A DNA stretch of 64,000 nt from a virus. Taxonomy: Duplodnaviria; Caudoviricetes. The notes beneath the pieces were generated by a model. That model was not told the origin of the DNA. It saw only the letters and a program-made list of their open reading frames with translations, and did not search any database. The translations under genes and the position numbers were made by a program. Shown here in pieces: positions 2,965 through 61,618 of the stretch. Each line of letters begins with the position of its first letter. Within the stretch, counting starts at the first letter, position 1. The stretch lies in IMG/VR virus record IMGVR_UViG_3300010340_001122. One strand, written 5' to 3'.

Positions 2965-3723
2965 TTATGGTTCATAAATTATAATATCAGGAATTCTTTT
3001 TTTAATTACTTGACACCATTTTTCTTCTTTCTCTATTAAAATATATCGTCTATTTGTATTTTTTGCTGCTAAACCGGTAGTTCCACTCCCAGATGTATTA
3101 TCTAATACTAAATCACCCTCATTTGTATATGTTTTTATCAAATATTCACAAAGTGCTAATGGCTTTTGGGTTGGATGTATTGTTCCATCTAATTTATTTT
3201 TTTGTTTATCTGATGAAAAAACTAAAACAGATCTTGGATATCTATCAGTATCACCTCCGCCTGATATAATACGATTCATTTCTCCATATAATTCAGTTTT
3301 ATTCTGAACTTCTGGCCTTTTTGTATATGAGTGCATCGGTTTATGACCAGTAGTTTTTTGAGGATTGTAAGTTGGTGGGTTTTTATAGAAGACTAAGATA
3401 TTCTCATGTGATTTCATAGGCATCTTCTTAGCATTCAGCCATCCAGTTGCTTGTGTTTTTTCCCAGATCCATTCATACTTTAACCAATCTAAATTTGAAC
3501 AACCTAAAACTTTATCAAATGGTGTTTGTGCAAATAATAAAATAGCACCATTATCTTTAATAATTCTTTTATAATGTTCCCATAATAAATTTAAATCTAA
3601 TTGAATATCCCATTTCGCTCTTGTCGTATTATATGGTAAGTCACATAATATTAAATCTATTGATTTATCTTTAATTCTAGGAAATATATTAAAGCAATCA
3701 TCTTGATAAAGTATATTTTCCAT
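2965..3723 (-). CDS. DNA N6-A/N4-C methyltransferase (beta class)
   Basis: CDLPY, HPTQKP, DNTSGSGTT. Confidence 0.9.
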   Translation of the reverse strand: MENILYQDDCFNIFPRIKDKSIDLILCDLPYNTTRAKWDIQLDLNLLWEHYKRIIKDNGAILLFAQTPFDKVLGCSNLDWLKYEWIWEKTQATGWLNAKKMPMKSHENILVFYKNPPTYNPQKTTGHKPMHSYTKRPEVQNKTELYGEMNRIISGGGDTDRYPRSVLVFSSDKQKNKLDGTIHPTQKPLALCEYLIKTYTNEGDLVLDNTSGSGTTGLAAKNTNRRYILIEKEEKWCQVIKKRIPDIIIYEP

Positions 3724-39194: not shown

Positions 39195-39551
39195 ATGAAA
39201 TTTATTAAATTCATTAAAAGTCTATTTAAAGGTTTTACTGAAGAATCAACTATGCCAGTAATCAACACACCAGTAACAAAGACCAAAGTTGAAGAGCCAG
39301 TTGTAATAGTTGAGGAAACACCAACTTTTACTAACGAGCCAGTTGTAAAAGTTGAAACAGATACGCCAGTTATTGTTGAATCTGATAAAAAAGAGATAGT
39401 AACTGAGACTCCTAAGGTTGAGGAATCGAAAACTGCTAAGGAAATTAAATCTAAAGTTAGAAAACCTAACCCAGATGTAAATCAACAGTCTAAGCCTAAA
39501 CCAAAAAGAAGAAGACCTTCTAAGCCAAAACAACCCAAACAAGGTGAATAA
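39195..39551 (+). CDS. low-complexity hypothetical protein
   Basis: E/V/T/P-rich with a basic tail. Confidence 0.55.
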   Translation: MKFIKFIKSLFKGFTEESTMPVINTPVTKTKVEEPVVIVEETPTFTNEPVVKVETDTPVIVESDKKEIVTETPKVEESKTAKEIKSKVRKPNPDVNQQSKPKPKRRRPSKPKQPKQGE

Positions 39552-39583
39552 AAAAAACCTCTGATTTATCAGAGGTTTTTTTT
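39551..39583. terminator. bidirectional intrinsic terminator
   Basis: A-tract CCTCTGAT-tt-ATCAGAGG T-tract between convergent genes. Confidence 0.85.
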
Positions 39584-39899
39584 ATTTTAAAAGTTTGATA
39601 TAAGATTTATAAGTTTTCCTATCCATAGTCATAATACAATATTTAGAATCTATTTCATTATAATAAGGGAAAAAGTAAAAACTATTATCTTGTTCATTAA
39701 AATTAAGTCCTAAAATCATTCTACCACCTTGTCTATATTTATCGCTATCTGATTTTAAAACAATAAAGTCATAATATATAATTTCTCTATGTAAAGACCA
39801 CCCATACTCTGATAATTTACACTCTAATATATGATCACCATCTTCATCTCTGAAGAGTAATCTATAGGATTTATTTTGTTTTAGAAGATTTTTCATCAT
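39582..39899 (-). CDS. hypothetical protein
   Basis: 105-aa ORF after TATATTTG box at 39916-39923. Confidence 0.55.
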   Translation of the reverse strand: MMKNLLKQNKSYRLLFRDEDGDHILECKLSEYGWSLHREIIYYDFIVLKSDSDKYRQGGRMILGLNFNEQDNSFYFFPYYNEIDSKYCIMTMDRKTYKSYIKLLK

Positions 39900-43261: not shown

Positions 43262-43291
43262 AAAAAAACCCACTCAAATGAGTGGGTTTTT
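43262..43291. terminator. bidirectional intrinsic terminator
   Basis: A-tract CCCACTCA-aa-TGAGTGGG T-tract between convergent genes. Confidence 0.85.
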
Positions 43292-46372: not shown

Positions 46373-47557
46373 ATGGATAAAGTTTATATACAAAGTATTA
46401 TTCAAAATATATTAGATAAAGAGTTCTCATCACCGATATTTAGAAAAGTAAATACATATGAGGATCGTATAAATATGCGATGCCCATATTGTAAAGAAGG
46501 TCGATCTCAACATAAAAAGAGAGGTAATCTATATTTTAATAAATTATTATTCATCTGTTTTAGATGTGATAAGAAAACTTCTTTTGATAAAATGTCTCGT
46601 GATTTTAATGAGGCTATTGATCCTCAGAAAAAGCTTGAACTAATTGAATATCTAGACTCGGTTGTTGATTATTCAGATTATGATACAGACTTTAATGATT
46701 TTAAAGTCGATGACTTAATCGATATGAAAGACTTAGAAGAATTATTCAATGTTAAAAAGACTACACCTATATTTGATTTTGCACCAGTGAGTGAAAAGAG
46801 TGGAGTTTTTAAATATTTAATAGGAAGGGGAATTCCCAAAGAATTACATAAGAATATTTATCAAGCTAAATTTGCAAAAGGCGATGAGGGATTTGAACAT
46901 GTTATTATATTCTTAAATAGAAGAGGTGATAAAGTGCTAGGTCTTCAAGTTCGTAATCTAAAAGAAGGTCGTAGAAGATTTTTTGTTATTTATAATTGGG
47001 AATCTATCTATAAGTGGATTCATGGTGATGATGTTGAATTAGATATTCAAAAATCGGTTATCTATAACAAACTATCATATTTCTTTAATATATTGAATAT
47101 TGATTTTGAAAATACGATAACTGTTTTTGAGGGGTATTTAGACTCAATATTTTATCCAAACTCTATTGGAATAGTTGGAGTAAATACTGATTTAAGATTC
47201 CTTGAAAATAATAATTTAGAGTTACAATATTTTTTTGATAATGATGATGCTGGTTTTAATAAGTCTGAGGAAAAAATAAAAGAAGGTGGTAAAGTCTTTT
47301 TATGGAAAAAGTTATTTGAAGATATTGTTTCTAAAAAGAAAAGTGGGGATCCACATGAGTTACTTTATCGAATTTCAAAAGTTAAAGATTTAAATAAATT
47401 AAATGAATTGGTTCCAGGTGCTTTTAAAAAATTAAATATTTATAATTTTTTTTCAGAGGATTTATATGATTTGAAATATTTACCTAAAAAATTAAACAAA
47501 AGAAAAACTAAACCTGAAAAAGATTATTTAAAAGAATTTAAAAATCACGACTTTTAA
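46373..47557 (+). CDS. DNA primase (T4 gp61-like)
   Basis: CPYC/CFRC zinc ribbon; TOPRIM VFEGYLDS and FDNDDAG. Confidence 0.85.
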   Translation: MDKVYIQSIIQNILDKEFSSPIFRKVNTYEDRINMRCPYCKEGRSQHKKRGNLYFNKLLFICFRCDKKTSFDKMSRDFNEAIDPQKKLELIEYLDSVVDYSDYDTDFNDFKVDDLIDMKDLEELFNVKKTTPIFDFAPVSEKSGVFKYLIGRGIPKELHKNIYQAKFAKGDEGFEHVIIFLNRRGDKVLGLQVRNLKEGRRRFFVIYNWESIYKWIHGDDVELDIQKSVIYNKLSYFFNILNIDFENTITVFEGYLDSIFYPNSIGIVGVNTDLRFLENNNLELQYFFDNDDAGFNKSEEKIKEGGKVFLWKKLFEDIVSKKKSGDPHELLYRISKVKDLNKLNELVPGAFKKLNIYNFFSEDLYDLKYLPKKLNKRKTKPEKDYLKEFKNHDF

Positions 47558-48027
47558 ATATACGGTACTCTAGTATTTTTATATTTTATATTTTTGATTC
47601 TTAAATAATCTTTAAACTTTAAATCTCCTCTTTCGTTATTACAATCAAAACACACAACAACTAAATTAATTTGACAATTATTACCACCCTTTGATATTGG
47701 TATAATATGATCAGTTGTTGCATTAGATTCTGTTAGATATTTTTCACAATAGATACATTTGGCTTTATCATTATCCTTTAAATATTCTTTAGCAAAACCA
47801 CTTGTTCTCCTTTTAACATTTTTACCATTCCATTTAAGACCAACGACAACAATATTTTCAAGAAATTTATACTTTTTTCTATAAATTACACAAGGAACAT
47901 AATTCTTATTTAATCTAACAAATAATCTTATTACTATTGACCATTTTTCCCAAATTTCTTTATCTACCGATATAAAATGGTGGTCTTTTGACTTTCTAAT
48001 AAACTTGACAACTTCTATAATATTCAT
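47554..48027 (-). CDS. HNH endonuclease
   Basis: CIYC, TDHIIPISKGG, NL...CFDCN. Confidence 0.85.
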   Translation of the reverse strand: MNIIEVVKFIRKSKDHHFISVDKEIWEKWSIVIRLFVRLNKNYVPCVIYRKKYKFLENIVVVGLKWNGKNVKRRTSGFAKEYLKDNDKAKCIYCEKYLTESNATTDHIIPISKGGNNCQINLVVVCFDCNNERGDLKFKDYLRIKNIKYKNTRVPYI

Positions 48028-49704: not shown

Positions 49705-51167
49705 TTAAAATCCGTTGAATATGTCTAAAATAACACTCAATCTTTTAGTTATTTCTGGCATTCCAAGTGGAGTAATAATTGAGTTAATAGGACTTATAAT
49801 TGTTTTGAAAAATTGTAAATCATAATCAACTTCAGGTGCGAATTCAATAGGATATGATCCTCTAATAAATGCAAATATTTCATTTATTTTTTTATTATTA
49901 CAGTGATAATACTTAATTTTTGTTCCGGATTTAATAAATTCATACTTTGATTGTAATTCTTTATTTTGATTTAAAAGAAAATTATAGTAAGCTGCTGATT
50001 TAACCGCAAAGTGAGCACCAGATACAAAACTTAATCTATCTTTATCTTCTAAAACCTTTGTTTCATAGTTAGAGCAAGATGATTGCATTGATATATCATC
50101 AATATCAGCTAATTCAAATTCTTTTCTTAAATTCTTAACCAATTTAAGTAAGTCTTTAATATTAAAATTATCTGGATGTTCAAATAAATATTTAACAATC
50201 TGTATAATTTTCTCTCTTGCAAAAAGTGGTGTTGATGATCTAACAAGTTCAACTCCTTTAGGGAAAATATATGTCAATCTATCGAAGGGAATACCATCTT
50301 CATAAACAATATTTTGTATATATTTCTTTTTAGAAAAATTCAGAATAGATTCAGAAATTCTCTCCAATTCAAAATCCTCTCGATTTTTAACCCCGAAACT
50401 CTCAGCATACTCTTCAAGACAGTTTTTAAAGTATCCACCAAATCTAAATCCATCAATTCCATGAATAAAATCTAATTCATTAAACCAATTCCATCTTATT
50501 ACATTATTTTTTAATAAATCTTGCAATTCAGGAGAATTAAATGATCTATCTTTAACAAAATAACCATCAATAATTAAATGATCTACTTTGTTATTTTTCA
50601 AAAAATCTTTTAATTCATCCGGTTTTTTAAAAATACCTAAACAGTTAATATTGTCGGTTTTGGTTTCTTGTCTATACTCTAATATTACAAATGTTGTATC
50701 TACTTTATCTATATTTTTTAAGAATAGATTTTGCCATTCACAATGTTGAATTGCAGGTTCAAATGATACAAATAATGAATCAGTATCTGCATAAATACTT
50801 ACTTCTTCTCCATTCTTTTTAATAATTGGAGTAACATTTTTCACACCTAATCTGGCATGTAATTCATAATCTATGTGCCAATGAGAATACCAGTATTTCT
50901 CATTTACTGCATGCATAGTTTTTGTTAAATCACGACCCTGTGCAGTAATTGTACCAGCAACGTGTTGGTTAAATAGTATGAAATATTGCGTCGCAAATGC
51001 ACCATACGAACCATTTAATATAAGTTTTAGTCAATACCCCCTCAAATAAATTGAGGGGGTCAAAAAAGAGCGAGCTGTAAGGCATTGTAGTAATCACTTT
51101 CCCTTTTCAACTCGCTGGCTTTATTTTTTAATGACTCAATTTTTTTGAGTTTATCTTCTTTAGTCAA
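49705..51167 (-). CDS. family B DNA polymerase, C-terminal subunit (fingers/palm/thumb), interrupted by a 38-nt coding gap
   Basis: TTG at 51167 gives MTKEDK...NALQLAL, a gap, then KLILNGSYGAF...ITAQGR...YADTDS...KKKY...KGVELVRSSTP; joined product about 474 aa; no motif A or exonuclease domain. Confidence 0.85.
51028..51068 (-). other. 38-nt coding gap (candidate translational bypass element or micro-intron)
   Basis: CUU UUU UGA, 10-bp stem ACCCCCUCAA/UUGAGGGGGU, AU UGA, CUA AAA; CUU-to-CUA distance is 38 nt. Confidence 0.75.
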
Positions 51168-51245
51168 TTTTTTAATTATTTTTTAAATATATCCTTAAAG
51201 GAACATATGTTAATTTTATATATAATAAAATTAATTAGTTTTTAT

Positions 51246-52388
51246 ATGATAAAAGAAAAAAATGTTTTAGTCTCCGTAAATTCAAGAAACATATCACACT
51301 ATAAGTTATTGGGTTATGATATACATATTGGTGGGTTTTCAGATAAAAAACTATTAGAAGTAATTATTAAAGACATTCCAAAAAATTCAACGGTTAGAAT
51401 AACTGCTATTTGTGACTTGTGTAGTTGTGAAAAGTCTATTACACTAGCAAAATATTATAAAAATTTTGAAAGAGGTGGTTATAATTTTTATTCTTGTTTT
51501 GGTTGTAAAAATAAAAAGAAAGAAATGACTAATCTAAAATTGTTTGGTGTAAAGTCTTTTTCCGAAACTGATGTCTTTAAGGAAAAATATAACAAAACTT
51601 GTTTAGAAAAATATGGAGTTAAAAATCCAAATATGTTAAAAGATTTTAGAGAAAAAACTAAAAAAACTTGCTTGGAAAAGTATGGATTTACAAATCCATT
51701 AATGAGACCAGAAATTATAGATTCAAATAGGATATGGATGTCTTCTGATGAATTTAAAAATAAATCCAAATTAACGTTAATAAAAAACTGGGGATTTGAT
51801 TCATACTCAAAAACTGATGAATTTAAAAATAAAATTCAAGAGAATAAAGAAATGATTATTAGTAAAATAAAATCTTCGTTTTTAGAAAAATACGGAGTTG
51901 ATTCTATTTTTAAAACTAAAGATTGGAAAATTAACTTTATGAATAAAATAGATGAAATCCAAAAGAAGAAAAAGGATACTTGTTTAGAAAAATATGGATT
52001 TGAAAATGTTTCTCAAGTCTCTGAAATATATGACAGAATAATTAAAACTAAGATATATAATAATCAAATTATACCTGATTCATTATTATCAGATTGGAAA
52101 ATATATAAAAGAAAAGTTAGGAAAATAACAAACAAGAATAAAAAAACTCTTTATGAAAATTGGAACGGTAATGATTATTATGATGATGAAGTTATAAAGT
52201 CCTATCTTGCATACTCACACACACATAGGTTTTACCCTTGTATAGACCACAAGATTAGTGTTTTTTATGGATTTAATAATAACATAGATCCAGAAATAAT
52301 AGGAGATATTGATAATTTATGTATAACTAAAAGATTTTTGAACTCCATAAAAGGTAGTTTAATTGAAGAGGAGTTTCGAAAATTTTAA
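51246..52388 (+). CDS. freestanding HNH-type homing endonuclease with KTCLEKYG repeats
   Basis: CDLC/C..C; multiple (T)CLEKYG..N repeats; C-terminal IDHKIS..GF......IG...NL......N..KG. Confidence 0.7.
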   Translation: MIKEKNVLVSVNSRNISHYKLLGYDIHIGGFSDKKLLEVIIKDIPKNSTVRITAICDLCSCEKSITLAKYYKNFERGGYNFYSCFGCKNKKKEMTNLKLFGVKSFSETDVFKEKYNKTCLEKYGVKNPNMLKDFREKTKKTCLEKYGFTNPLMRPEIIDSNRIWMSSDEFKNKSKLTLIKNWGFDSYSKTDEFKNKIQENKEMIISKIKSSFLEKYGVDSIFKTKDWKINFMNKIDEIQKKKKDTCLEKYGFENVSQVSEIYDRIIKTKIYNNQIIPDSLLSDWKIYKRKVRKITNKNKKTLYENWNGNDYYDDEVIKSYLAYSHTHRFYPCIDHKISVFYGFNNNIDPEIIGDIDNLCITKRFLNSIKGSLIEEEFRKF

Positions 52389-52389
52389 A

Positions 52390-53172
52390 TTAATCCTCTT
52401 CGTTTGTAAAATCTTGTTCAAAACTAATCATTAAGTGACTTGTTTCATCTTTTGTTAAAATGAATGTATCAAAAACATAAAATTCAATTTTATCAGAATT
52501 ATCATTTATAGATGGGAGAAATGTTTTATTAAACATTAAATGTCTGTCTGTTAAATCCACTTCATCTACTTGAAATTCCCAAGTGGATAATTCAGATAAA
52601 ACAACTTTTTTATCTTCAACATTTAAATGTATTACTTTACCATCTGAATTAATTGATGATAACTTCTTAATATCTTGAAATTCTGATTTATCAATTTTAA
52701 AAGACCATTTACTATTTTTAATATCAACTCTTTTTGATAGAACTCCTTTTGGAATATCTCTAATTTCAGAAGATTCGCCTCCTTGAAGGCCAATTTTTAA
52801 CTTACCATTTTTAATTTGTGTAAAACGAACTATTGAAGAATCATCATCATCATTTTCACGATAATCAATATTCATTACGATTTTATCAGATGATGTTTTA
52901 ATAAATCCAAGATTTTTAACAAATCTTTTAGCACCAGAAATGATCATATCGAGTGTATTTTCTAATTCATCTTTCATTTCAAAATAGTCTTTAGTATCTA
53001 TTAGATAACTTTTAAATGCTAAAAGTATTGTTTCTCCAACAATAGAATACATTAGAATATTTTCCGAATCTATTTTTAATTTAATTGTATCACTTATTTT
53101 AGATAAGTCCTCTAACTTTGTTAGAAAGTCCTCGAATTTATCACGATTTAATTGTATAGTGAGTTTTGACAT
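52390..53172 (-). CDS. putative DNA sliding clamp (gp45-like)
   Basis: About 260 aa, acidic, two-domain alpha/beta pattern, upstream of the polymerase on the same strand. Confidence 0.5.
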   Translation of the reverse strand: MSKLTIQLNRDKFEDFLTKLEDLSKISDTIKLKIDSENILMYSIVGETILLAFKSYLIDTKDYFEMKDELENTLDMIISGAKRFVKNLGFIKTSSDKIVMNIDYRENDDDDSSIVRFTQIKNGKLKIGLQGGESSEIRDIPKGVLSKRVDIKNSKWSFKIDKSEFQDIKKLSSINSDGKVIHLNVEDKKVVLSELSTWEFQVDEVDLTDRHLMFNKTFLPSINDNSDKIEFYVFDTFILTKDETSHLMISFEQDFTNEED

Positions 53173-58891: not shown

Positions 58892-59428
58892 ATGAGTGAT
58901 AAACCAACATTGGATAGAATAGAATTATTACATCCAGCAGTTAGACAAGAAGTTAAAGATATCTATTTAAATGAAATTGTACCTGCTTTAGCTGGAAAAG
59001 CAATATGCAGATTTGCATATACTTTAAGAACGTTTGCTGAGCAAGATGCACTTTATGCACAAGGTCGAACAAAATTATTTGACGCTAATGGAAAAAAATT
59101 AGGAGTTGTTACAAAAGCAAAAGGTGGTCAATCTATACACAATTTTGGATTGGCACTTGATATTGTCCTTTTAAAGGATACTAATGGTGATGGTACGTTT
59201 GAGTCTGCTTCTTGGGAAACAAATATAGATTTTGATAAAGATGGTAAAGCAGATTGGATGGAAATTGTAAATATTTTTAAAAAACATGGATGGGAATGGG
59301 GAGGAGATTGGAAATCATTTAAAGATCTTCCACACTTTGAAAAAACTTTTGGAAATACATGGAGAACATTATTACCAAAACATAATGCTAAACAATTTAT
59401 ACCTGGAACCACATATGTAAAGATCTAA
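58892..59428 (+). CDS. endolysin, M15 family L-Ala-D-Glu peptidase
   Basis: LRT..EQ..LYAQGRT, SIHNFGLALD, WGGDW..FKD.PHFE. Confidence 0.9.
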   Translation: MSDKPTLDRIELLHPAVRQEVKDIYLNEIVPALAGKAICRFAYTLRTFAEQDALYAQGRTKLFDANGKKLGVVTKAKGGQSIHNFGLALDIVLLKDTNGDGTFESASWETNIDFDKDGKADWMEIVNIFKKHGWEWGGDWKSFKDLPHFEKTFGNTWRTLLPKHNAKQFIPGTTYVKI

Positions 59429-59429
59429 A

Positions 59430-59461
59430 TAAAAAAACCACTCATTTTGAGTGGTTTTTTT
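59430..59461. terminator. bidirectional intrinsic terminator
   Basis: A-tract CCACTCA-ttt-TGAGTGG T-tract between convergent genes. Confidence 0.85.
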
Positions 59462-60611
59462 ATTTTAAAATATTTACTACTTCTGGATACCAATGACATT
59501 TTGTATCATCTTTATCATCATAATTTATTTTATCCAAAACATATCTCATTGCATTTAATCTTCCTATTTTTTTATCATTAGAATTTATTATTACCCAAGG
59601 AGACATTCTTGTTGATGTTTTATTAAACATCTGATTTTTATATTTAGTTATTATATCCCATTTATCAACAACTTTTGCATCGTTTGGTGAAAATTTCCAA
59701 TATTTAAGAGGAGATTGTTTTCTTAATTCAAATCTTAATTGTTGTTTTTCTTTAGTTATAGAAAACCAAAATTTAATTAAAATTAATCCTTTTTTTATTA
59801 AAGATTCTTCCCAATTTCCAACATTTTCTATAAAATCCATATATTGATCCTCTGTACAATATCCCATAGCTGGCTCAACGACTCCTCTATTATACCAAGA
59901 TCTATCAAAGAAAACAATTTCTCCATTATTTGGTAGATGTTTTTCATATCTTCCAAACCAATTATTTTTCTCTTCTTCTGTTGGTACTCCAAGAGCAACA
60001 ACTCTGAAGTATTTAGGATTTAAATATTCAATAAATCTTTTAATAGTTGAACCTTTACCAGCTGAATCTCTTCCTTCAAAAACAATAGCAACTCTCTGAT
60101 TTGTTCTAATAACCCATTCTTGTAATTTCATCAATTCAACCTGAATATCATATTTCTCATCTTCATATTTTCTACGAGTTATTAATGAGTGTTCTCCTTC
60201 GACTTTATCAAAATGATCTTCTTCTTTAGAATCTTGAGATTCCTCTTCAAATCTATTTTCTAGAGAAGAATAATAATTTAAAAACTCTTCTTTAATTTTC
60301 TTTTTAGTATTTCTTTTTTTTAAATCTAAAATTTGATTGATTTTTCTTAAAAAAGACACAATATTGAATTGTTCTACAATATCCTTTCCTAAATCCGAGT
60401 TTAATTGTGATATAATTTGAGGTATATTAATATTTGTAAAATCTTTATATTCAATTTTATTAGTTTTAAGATTATATTCAATATTGTGTAATATTGAATA
60501 TTTATATTGATCTAAATTAGTAATGATATTTATTAATAATTTATTAAAACTACTATCACTCATTTTACTAATATTTAATTCTTCTTTTATATGTTTTATA
60601 TAGTGTAACAT
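59460..60611 (-). CDS. ppk2: polyphosphate kinase 2 with N-terminal extension
   Basis: FEGRDSAGKG, FDRSWYNR, LKYWKFSPND, DKK.GRLN. Confidence 0.9.
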   Translation of the reverse strand: MLHYIKHIKEELNISKMSDSSFNKLLINIITNLDQYKYSILHNIEYNLKTNKIEYKDFTNINIPQIISQLNSDLGKDIVEQFNIVSFLRKINQILDLKKRNTKKKIKEEFLNYYSSLENRFEEESQDSKEEDHFDKVEGEHSLITRRKYEDEKYDIQVELMKLQEWVIRTNQRVAIVFEGRDSAGKGSTIKRFIEYLNPKYFRVVALGVPTEEEKNNWFGRYEKHLPNNGEIVFFDRSWYNRGVVEPAMGYCTEDQYMDFIENVGNWEESLIKKGLILIKFWFSITKEKQQLRFELRKQSPLKYWKFSPNDAKVVDKWDIITKYKNQMFNKTSTRMSPWVIINSNDKKIGRLNAMRYVLDKINYDDKDDTKCHWYPEVVNILK

Positions 60612-61527: not shown

Positions 61528-61569
61528 TTACTTAATACTTTTCTTATATATTAAAACTTTTAAGTGCAT

Positions 61570-61598
61570 AAAAAACCCAGATATAATCTGGGTTTTTT
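61570..61598. terminator. intrinsic terminator
   Basis: A-tract CCCAGAT-ata-ATCTGGG T-tract. Confidence 0.8.
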
Positions 61599-61618
61599 AT
61601 TTTACATCAAATTTTAAA

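Follow-up and report, generated by a model that had tools for sequence, protein, structure and literature searches.

How can a phage make a DNA polymerase from a gene whose catalytic motif is interrupted by a hairpin and a stop codon? This question is raised by the IMG/VR virus record IMGVR_UViG_3300010340_001122 (Duplodnaviria; Caudoviricetes), which derives from a huge, uncultured phage. In the stretch of 64,000 nucleotides that we analyzed (hereafter the window), the gene for the C-terminal part of a predicted family B DNA polymerase (polB) is broken inside motif B by a 38-nt gap, and the reading frame of the polymerase resumes on the far side of the gap. A first-pass annotation, made from the letters of the window alone, had proposed that the 38 nt are removed either by ribosome hopping or by RNA splicing, and this proposal is supported by the gap-free alleles, the stems and the selection on the coding parts that we describe here. 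We think that the gap is probably crossed by programmed translational bypass and sits within a mobile endonuclease cassette, like that of T4 mobA and gene 60 but in another gene. Put simply, varied hairpins are found at the same spot in dozens of relatives together with a selfish nuclease gene, and so ribosomes most likely hop.

A 38-nt gap interrupts motif B of the polymerase gene

When we read the letters of the window, we found that the polB C-terminal gene lies on the minus strand and that all coordinates given by the first-pass annotation were reproduced. The parts of the gene are listed below; the codons that flank the skipped sequence are called the take-off and landing codons.

51066..51167, minus strand: polB C-terminal gene, exon 1; TTG start (51165-51167) plus 33 codons, ending ...DYYNALQLAL
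51066-51068, minus strand: take-off codon CTT (Leu), the last codon of exon 1
51028..51065, minus strand: coding gap of 38 nt, counted after CTT through CTA
51060..51065, minus strand: TTT sense codon, then the 0-frame stop TGA (51060-51062)
51036..51060, minus strand: hairpin with a perfect 10-bp stem and a 5-nt loop, ACCCCCTCAA-TTTAT-TTGAGGGGGT; the 5' arm holds a C-run and the 3' arm a G-run
51031..51035, minus strand: A/U-rich spacer ATTGA between hairpin and landing codon, which puts a landing-frame TGA directly before CTA
51028..51030, minus strand: landing codon CTA (Leu), synonymous with the take-off codon CTT
49705..51027, minus strand: polB C-terminal gene, exon 2 (P0001, 441 aa), KLILNGSYGAF... 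to the stop codon

On the minus strand, exon 1 ends with ...GAT TAC TAC AAT GCC TTA CAG CTC GCT CTT, and the letters after CTA are AAA CTT ATA TTA AAT GGT TCG TAT GGT. The layout described earlier thus holds at every coordinate: a 38-nt skip from CTT to CTA, a stop, a 10-bp stem, a TGA directly before CTA, and a landing frame whose first ATG is at 50916. Deletion of the 38 nt gives YYNALQLALKLILNGSYGAFAT exactly. Reading TGA as Trp was tried as well; it gives QLALFWPPQFIWGGID followed by TAA, and the frame is not rescued.

Exon 1 is homologous to the first 34 codons of uninterrupted 474-aa genes (in loci L001 and L002, and P0007), and exon 2 contains motif B from its Lys onwards, motif C (YADTDS) and the thumb. 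P0001 matches Pfam family PF00136 (6e-14, with the match beginning at profile position 157) and PHROG 262 (1e-42, spanning positions 516-839 of 856), and motif B of the gap-free homologue P0007, ALQLALKLILNGSYGAF, aligns with VVQRAMKVFINATYGVF of Sulfolobus PolB1 (PDB 1s5j). By these matches the downstream frame is a predicted family B DNA polymerase with motif B (KxxxNSxYG), as had been claimed.

The insert is present in independent data. In a separate ENA assembly (L013) the sequence is identical, including the 38 nt, and contigs from three DNA runs of different studies span 51028-51068 without an indel. These runs come from an anaerobic digester (2022), a sample labelled marine (2021; 37x) and activated sludge (2016). 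The 37x contig carries 7 substitutions in 1.2 kb and none within the gap. This check rests on assembled contigs, in which minor variants are possible.

Gaps at four codons of motif B are common among relatives

To place the gap among its relatives, we compared 94 loci, the window and 93 others chosen for their similarity to the window's polymerase protein; these came from phage records in GenBank, IMG/VR, one ENA assembly, and metagenomes of JGI, NCBI and ENA. A protein search gave 1376 homologues at E < 1e-20, and the nearest database phages are uncultured and 630-735 kb long. Two of the records, LR756502 and LR745206, have an uninterrupted 474-aa open reading frame (ORF) that starts ~35 codons before motif B and reads ...YYNAMQLALKLVLNGSYGAF. 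Called lengths of the homologues cluster either at 473-477 aa or, where calls are truncated at the N terminus, at 403-440 aa. Since gene callers give 403-440 aa instead of ~474, such gaps are likely to be systematically mis-annotated in phage metagenomes.

When we parsed the junction in the 94 loci, we found that 42 are gap-free, 51 (including the window) bear a gap, and one is truncated and unclassified. All 42 gap-free loci, among them L001, L002 and P0007, read YYNALQLALKL[IV]LNGSYG without interruption; these are the QLALK alleles that the first-pass annotation had suggested looking for. The gap-bearing loci, which are at 60-93% protein identity, hold 34 distinct single-gap alleles and two double-gap alleles (L028 and L080). 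Gap lengths range from 37 to 49 nt with every residue modulo 3 represented, and the gaps are inserted at four codons (Ala8, Leu9, Val12 and Tyr17) that lie within ten codons of motif B. At the Leu site, relatives carry other hairpins in gaps of 38-42 nt. Deletion of the gap restores YYNALQLALKL[IV]LNGSYGAFAT exactly, both in the window and in each of the 44 gap-bearing loci that were singly parsed.

In the window's nearest relatives the gene is interrupted at a different site, Tyr in L014 and Ala in L016, and on the polymerase tree the gap state changes at least 16 times, with 12 changes forced by supported branches; the trees were made by a quick method and co-conversion may blur them. In L028 and L080 the Leu site and the Tyr site each carry a hairpin gap, and the two gaps of an allele lie within ten codons. 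The hairpin of the second gap in L080, CCCCCTCAA-GAAA-TTGAGGGGG, has the same stem as the Leu-site hairpin of the window, and this shared stem suggests that hairpin modules may move between sites.

Both exons appear to be maintained in gap-bearing loci. Exon 2 stays open for ~414 codons past the ITAQGR anchor, with the exception of L008-L010, where a split intein is present. Over the 32 codons of exon 1 that were compared, 32 distinct gap-bearing alleles have no stops and a ratio of nonsynonymous to synonymous substitution rates (dN/dS) of 0.175, identical to that of 39 gap-free alleles. The two largest searchable contigs with a gap, IMG/VR contigs of 172 kb and 137 kb (estimated to be 60% and 44% complete), contain no second polB C-terminal gene. 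Decay of the downstream gene and an intact second copy elsewhere, which had been named earlier as signs that would speak against removal of the gap, were thus not seen in the loci and contigs searched.

The gap hairpins covary and are concentrated in the polB gap

The G+C content of the window is 26.5%, and the polB hairpin is its only GC-rich stem of at least 7 bp besides one terminator-like hairpin. The hairpin pattern occurs once in the window as compared to 0.00 times expected (100 shuffles), and the minimum free energy of the hairpin is –19.2 kcal/mol (z = –2.47). In all 31 distinct alleles, the gap hairpins have stems of 10-19 bp and energies of –17 to –34 kcal/mol; the hairpin sequences differ among alleles, and the C-run is always in the 5' arm and the G-run always in the 3' arm. 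The stem begins 9-10 nt past the first base of the take-off codon.

To ask whether pairing is conserved while sequence changes, we scored covariation on the 12 alleles that share a 10+4+10 layout, as a MAFFT alignment of all 31 misregistered the unequal stems. In these 12 alleles, 98.3% of cells are paired and 5 of the 10 pairs have changed on both sides. The covariation score is 0.491 as compared to 0.14 for shuffled alignments (none of 500 was as high), and sliding the partner gives 0.097 at most. Gap-bearing alleles with covarying stems, a second kind of relative that had been proposed as a check, are therefore found among the 34 single-gap alleles.

In 532 kb of loci (~6 kb per locus), we counted 40 C-run/G-run hairpins, of which 34 belong to the polB gap and six are intergenic, terminator-like stems. 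We found no repeated copies of the gap hairpin within the 64-kb window and no match (0) in an exact IMG/VR search for the window hairpin. An Rfam search at gathering thresholds gave no match in the window, L009 or L012. The predicted folds of the 31 alleles are uninterrupted stems without paired 3-nt bulges, and none has bulge-helix-bulge geometry. Elsewhere in the window there are intergenic hairpins built of an A-run, a short GC stem and a T-run (39547-39586, 59427-59465, 61568-61600, 43264-43291 and 2181-2222); these look like bidirectional terminators and their form is unlike that of the polB gap hairpin.

Codons used for take-off and landing appear to be related by wobble

The codon pairs that flank the gaps are as follows, written as take-off to landing.

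Ala8: GCU to GCU or GCA; GCC to GCU; GCU to UCU
Leu9: CUU to CUA (10 of 10 distinct alleles, including the window)
Val12: GUU to GUA (4 of 4 alleles)
Tyr17: UAU to UAC (7 cases)
Tyr17: UAU to UAU (1 allele)
Tyr17: UAY to UAA (4 cases)
Tyr17: UAU to UAG (1 allele)
Tyr17: UAU to AAC or AAA (3 alleles)
Tyr17: UAU to AGC (1 allele)

The Tyr17 tallies take in the second gaps of L028 and L080, plus L064. Take-off and landing codons have their first two bases in common in 26 of 31 distinct alleles, as compared to 3.4% of control triplets within the gaps (permutation test, p ≤ 1e-4), and the pair is identical in only 3 of 31. The direction of the pair is consistent: the take-off codon ends in U and the landing codon is mostly NNA or NNC. 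By standard decoding rules, the last base of the landing codon would be the Watson-Crick partner of the first anticodon base of the sole tRNA that reads both codons (anticodons UAG, UAC, UGC and GUA). Because the first two bases are mostly shared and the pairs are rarely identical, the pattern fits re-pairing by one tRNA. It does not fit a target-site duplication, in which the two triplets would be the same, and for a spliced intron the two codons would not have to be related at all.

All three stop codons are used in the gaps. The 0-frame stop lies one codon after the take-off codon in 3 of 31 alleles, two codons after it in 24 and later in 4. Two features of the window that had been set down earlier as caveats, codons that are synonymous rather than identical and a UUU between take-off and stop, are therefore the rule in the family. 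Take-off at UUU (GUU and so on in other alleles) was considered and rejected: no matching landing triplets are found, and residues would be gained inside SYG or QLALK.

The tails 3' of the hairpin are A-rich and mostly 5-8 nt long, longer where the stem extends outward, and in 28 of 31 alleles they contain no triplet cognate to the take-off codon. In the window the G-run ends 6 nt before CTA, as noted in the first-pass annotation; this distance is 5-8 nt in most alleles and 10-16 nt in the others. Since it varies from 5 to 16 nt, landing appears to be set by the codon and not by a ruler. On these sequence comparisons, the codon logic and the variable distance between hairpin and landing codon favor hopping over splicing.

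A homing endonuclease gene adjoins many gap-bearing polymerase genes

Directly upstream of the polymerase gene, two features of the window bear on how the gap may have arrived.

51207..52388, plus strand: free-standing homing endonuclease gene, 393 aa, antisense to the polymerase gene and directly upstream of it
52390..53172, minus strand: conserved 260-aa neighbour gene, which marks the ancestral junction entered by the endonuclease gene

The 393-aa protein matches PHROG 3339 and 12131, both 'homing endonuclease' (4e-14 and 2e-13), and DUF7487, and its product is a predicted free-standing homing endonuclease. A C-terminal catalytic motif, ...DHK...NL...N..K, was noted by eye only, and a PDB sequence search with the protein gave no match. 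The 260-aa protein matches no Pfam or PHROG family; in 55 loci a homologue lies upstream of the polB C-terminal gene, and where the endonuclease is absent the two genes are direct neighbours.

To compare endonuclease presence with gap state, we used the 63 loci with at least 1300 nt of upstream sequence. Of the 34 gap-bearing loci, 22 have an endonuclease homologue upstream, whereas all 29 gap-free loci lack one (naive Fisher p = 1.3e-8). Its presence is patchy: it occupies one slot in 22 of the 63 loci, which are scattered on the polymerase tree. The endonuclease tree, made without L087, L088, L091 and L092, has two deep clades. Of 11 loci with short endonucleases (277-290 aa), 10 have Tyr-site gaps, and the long clade (332-404 aa) goes with the Ala, Leu and Val sites. 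The class of gap site changes 7 times on this tree as compared to 12.4 times when shuffled (none of 200 shuffles was as low). Taken together, the distribution has the pattern of a mobile nuclease-plus-gap cassette that may occasionally lose the nuclease.

In gap-free loci the same slot holds IF3, a lysozyme-like gene or an unrelated small HNH gene (L023). The IF3 gene (PF05198 and PF00707) lies between the 260-aa gene and the polB C-terminal gene in L037 (1619-2158) and also in L047, L051 and L053. The HNH gene of L023 resembles a second, unrelated small HNH gene of the window (157 aa, PF01844-type PHROG matches; 47554-48027, minus strand), which lies 1.7 kb downstream of the polB C-terminal gene.

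A model for the probable bypass of the polB gap

How a hop would run at this locus can be laid out from the arrangement of its parts. A ribosome would start at the TTG at 51167 and read 34 codons, by which point the nascent chain would approximately fill the exit tunnel, and it would stall with peptidyl-tRNA-Leu on CUU. The 10-bp hairpin, 9-10 nt past the first base of the take-off codon, would hinder decoding of the next codon, and the UGA one codon further would terminate ribosomes that fail to hop. The peptidyl-tRNA would release CUU, a wobble pair for a tRNA with the anticodon UAG, the mRNA would slide, and the same tRNA would re-pair with its Watson-Crick codon CUA five bases past the hairpin. 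Decoding would restart at AAA to give ...QLAL-KLILNGSYG..., with motif B intact. The hop should leave the junction peptide ESDYYNALQLALK, and a failed hop should leave a termination product of 35 residues. Stem-loops 11-12 nt from the P-site codon can dock into the A site and block tRNA binding (bioRxiv 10.1101/2020.02.05.936120). Given this published block and a stem at 9-10 nt from take-off, the hairpin would be the primary stall signal and the stop a fail-safe. No tRNA genes were found within the 64-kb window.

The gap and the antisense homing endonuclease gene upstream would form one selfish cassette. The nuclease would cut the conserved motif-B DNA of gap-free alleles, and the gap, by breaking the site, would shield its carrier, on the pattern of T4 MobA and the gene 60 gap.

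Several observations weigh against programmed bypass. An essential polymerase needs high bypass efficiency, and L028 and L080 would need two hops within ten codons. The landing match is weak in 5 of 31 alleles (UAU to AAA, AAC or AGC; GCU to UCU), and a different choice of codons for L014 and L018, GUU to GUG, would add two residues to motif B. The stop mostly lies two codons past take-off (UUU UGA in the window), unlike in T4, where it follows directly. Shine-Dalgarno-like 4-mers precede 1 of 69 ATG ORFs of at least 100 aa in the window, as compared to 7% of background 17-mers; because the window's genes lack Shine-Dalgarno sequences, a Shine-Dalgarno role for the G-run is doubtful. From the same count, the host may initiate translation independently of Shine-Dalgarno sequences, as Bacteroidota do. 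On the tree, endonuclease and gap change in the same direction in 4.2 independent pairs and in the opposite direction in 0, which with so few pairs gives p ~0.125.

Other explanations for the gap

Excision at the RNA level is the alternative that survives best, and we regard it as unlikely. Here a hairpin micro-intron of 37-49 nt would be cut from the mRNA by an endonuclease and ligase of the phage or the host, and translation would be ordinary. Such excision explains the exact restoration of the protein in all alleles equally well, it suits a hairpin that is the sole universally conserved feature, and it is untroubled by the five alleles with poorly matching landing triplets. Huge phages also carry many RNA-processing genes. 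However, no Rfam family matched, the gaps are much too short for group I or group II introns, and the uninterrupted 10-19 bp stems are not the bulge-helix-bulge form, which has two 3-nt bulges and a 4-bp helix. The 3' boundary lies anywhere from 5 to 16 nt past the hairpin core, which leaves no hairpin ruler for the cut. In addition, excision has no need of synonymous border codons, the NNU to NNA/NNC direction, a nearby 0-frame stop or a tail free of cognate triplets. If excision were true, mRNA splicing in bacteria or phages would gain a new class.

Termination followed by re-initiation, with the gap as an intercistronic spacer and a 35-residue peptide that assembles non-covalently with the 441-residue protein, seems to us quite improbable. 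The polymerase is already encoded in distant N- and C-terminal genes, an intein splits it further in L008-L010, and in many alleles there is a stop codon and the resume site is preceded, at 5-7 nt, by a G-run. Against this, the resume codons (CTA, GTA, GCT, TAC, TAA and others) include no start codon and follow the identity of the take-off codon, the genome does not use Shine-Dalgarno sequences, and the chain would be broken within the motif-B helix, at one of four places between Tyr-Gly and the catalytic Lys/Asn.

We give very little credence to a dead gene or an assembly artefact, that is, a recent disabling insertion or a chimera with the polymerase supplied elsewhere: the gap carries a stop and its length is not a multiple of three, and the search of the window's own genome covers 64 kb only, but the identical insert recurs in independent assemblies across studies and years, both exons are open and under purifying selection in the 51 gap-bearing loci (dN/dS 0.175), and no second copy is seen in the 172-kb and 137-kb contigs. 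Stop readthrough with frameshifting, by which the insert would be translated into extra residues, is just as hard to credit, for although some gaps, such as the 39-nt gap of L011, have a length divisible by three and only one stop, gap lengths fall in all three residues modulo 3, all three stop codons occur, the encoded peptides would differ among alleles, and 12-16 residues would be added inside motif B.

The split polymerase, its inteins and its start region

In LR756502, an N-terminal PF00136 segment (a 515-aa frame, L095, LR756502.1 254948-255340) lies ~133 kb from the C-terminal gene (L001 5902-7326); no N-terminal polymerase part was found within the window. Since gap-free relatives are also split, the split of the polymerase is ancestral and older than the cassette.

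Inserts also recur at motif C (YADTDS) of the polB C-terminal gene, a second hot spot. L012 has an in-frame mini-intein there (3250-3723; PF14890, 1.3e-12). In L008-L010 (L009 3244-3743) the sequence reads ...IYGD|SVDG...IIHN, a stop, and then MKKENYK...ILVHN|TDSIFV, and these loci appear to have a naturally split intein at motif C. With both a gap and a split intein, the polymerase of L008-L010 would require a hop plus protein trans-splicing.

The start region of the gene has features of its own. On the minus strand of the window, the 10-mer ATTGACTAAA occurs at both the TTG start (51161-51170) and the landing site (51026-51035). In relatives such as L034, ATGACTAAA occurs at both places; TTG at both is found in the window allele only. 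This repeat could be chance, or the landing region could be a mimic of the region where translation of the gene starts. In most loci a conserved motif, GT(C/T)CC(T)TT(A/G)AA(ACTTTT), lies 25-45 nt upstream of the polB C-terminal start (~51193-51204 on the minus strand of the window) with a TATA(T/A)-rich stretch 3' of it, and together these look like a promoter.

Comparison with known systems

Phages related to T4 have split gp43 genes, and inteins and homing endonucleases occur in their polymerase genes. As at the polB gap, selfish elements hit conserved polymerase motifs and the polymerase is encoded in pieces. Those cases use separate subunits, self-splicing introns or inteins, and none is known to have an untranslated hairpin gap. 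In our full-text literature searches, bypass came up only for topoisomerase genes of the T4 type, for yeast mitochondria and for the Hau3 terminase. The main comparative paper on gene 60 describes cases in topoisomerase genes only, and the word 'polymerase' is absent from it (bioRxiv 10.1101/2022.08.31.505936).

In the terminase gene of Streptomyces phage Hau3, bypass of 10-nt inserts is triggered by a rare UUA codon; a junction peptide in a heterologous host supports bypass, and local RNA structure brings the landing codon close (PMC10732093). There too an essential phage gene is broken by short inserts. In contrast to the 10-nt gaps of Hau3, with a hungry codon as a regulatory sensor, the polB gaps are 37-49 nt long with strong hairpins, stops and a link to an endonuclease.

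The byps of Magnusiomyces capitatus mitochondria occur in many genes of one genome with up to 12 per coding sequence (PMC10732093; bioRxiv 10.1101/2022.08.31.505936). Byps resemble the polB gaps in being short GC-rich hairpin inserts in an AT-rich genome that are evidently mobile, and in being bypassed between matched or wobble-related codons with imperfect landing tolerated. The polB hairpins differ in that they are found in the motif-B region only (34 of 40 in the 532 kb) and are tied to a homing endonuclease.

The closest likeness is to T4 gene 60, where a 50-nt bypass goes with the MobA HNH homing endonuclease as a cassette; homologues are found in myovirus topoisomerase genes, and in some lineages the nuclease is lost and the gap kept (bioRxiv 10.1101/2022.08.31.505936). 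In both systems the gene is a split replication gene whose downstream part is interrupted after 30-45 codons by a non-coding gap, the codons are paired with wobble allowed, and the site is shifted by one codon between clades. Both have a stop close to take-off, a stem-loop there that shows compensatory changes, and, in many alleles, a G-rich triplet 5-7 nt before landing followed by an AU-rich spacer. In both, a free-standing homing endonuclease adjoins and some lineages have lost the nuclease and kept the gap.

The two systems also differ. The polB gap sits in the polB C-terminal subunit and not in a topoisomerase, and is therefore not part of the gene 60 homologous family; its endonuclease belongs to DUF7487/PHROG 3339 and lies antisense and upstream, unlike MobA; and the polB split predates the cassette. 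The polB gaps lie at four codons across ten of motif B, sometimes two per gene, and the stop is usually one codon past the A-site codon. Most polB hairpins start after the take-off codon and do not contain it, the codon pairs are almost never identical (NNU to NNA/NNC), and the genome does not use Shine-Dalgarno sequences.

Long-range bypass has so far meant one well-studied system, T4 gene 60 and its topoisomerase homologues, with the yeast byps and one short-gap phage candidate besides. If the polB gaps are bypassed, they would be an independent and abundant natural family in a different essential gene, and the more than 30 natural alleles at four codons would be a ready-made mutational series. 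The rules that they suggest are a wobble NNU take-off codon with a Watson-Crick cognate landing codon, a hairpin 9-10 nt from the P-site codon, a stop one codon beyond the A site, and function in a genome without Shine-Dalgarno use. They would also extend the idea, known from the T4 cassette, that homing endonucleases guard their own genomes by placing untranslated gaps in the most conserved coding DNA.

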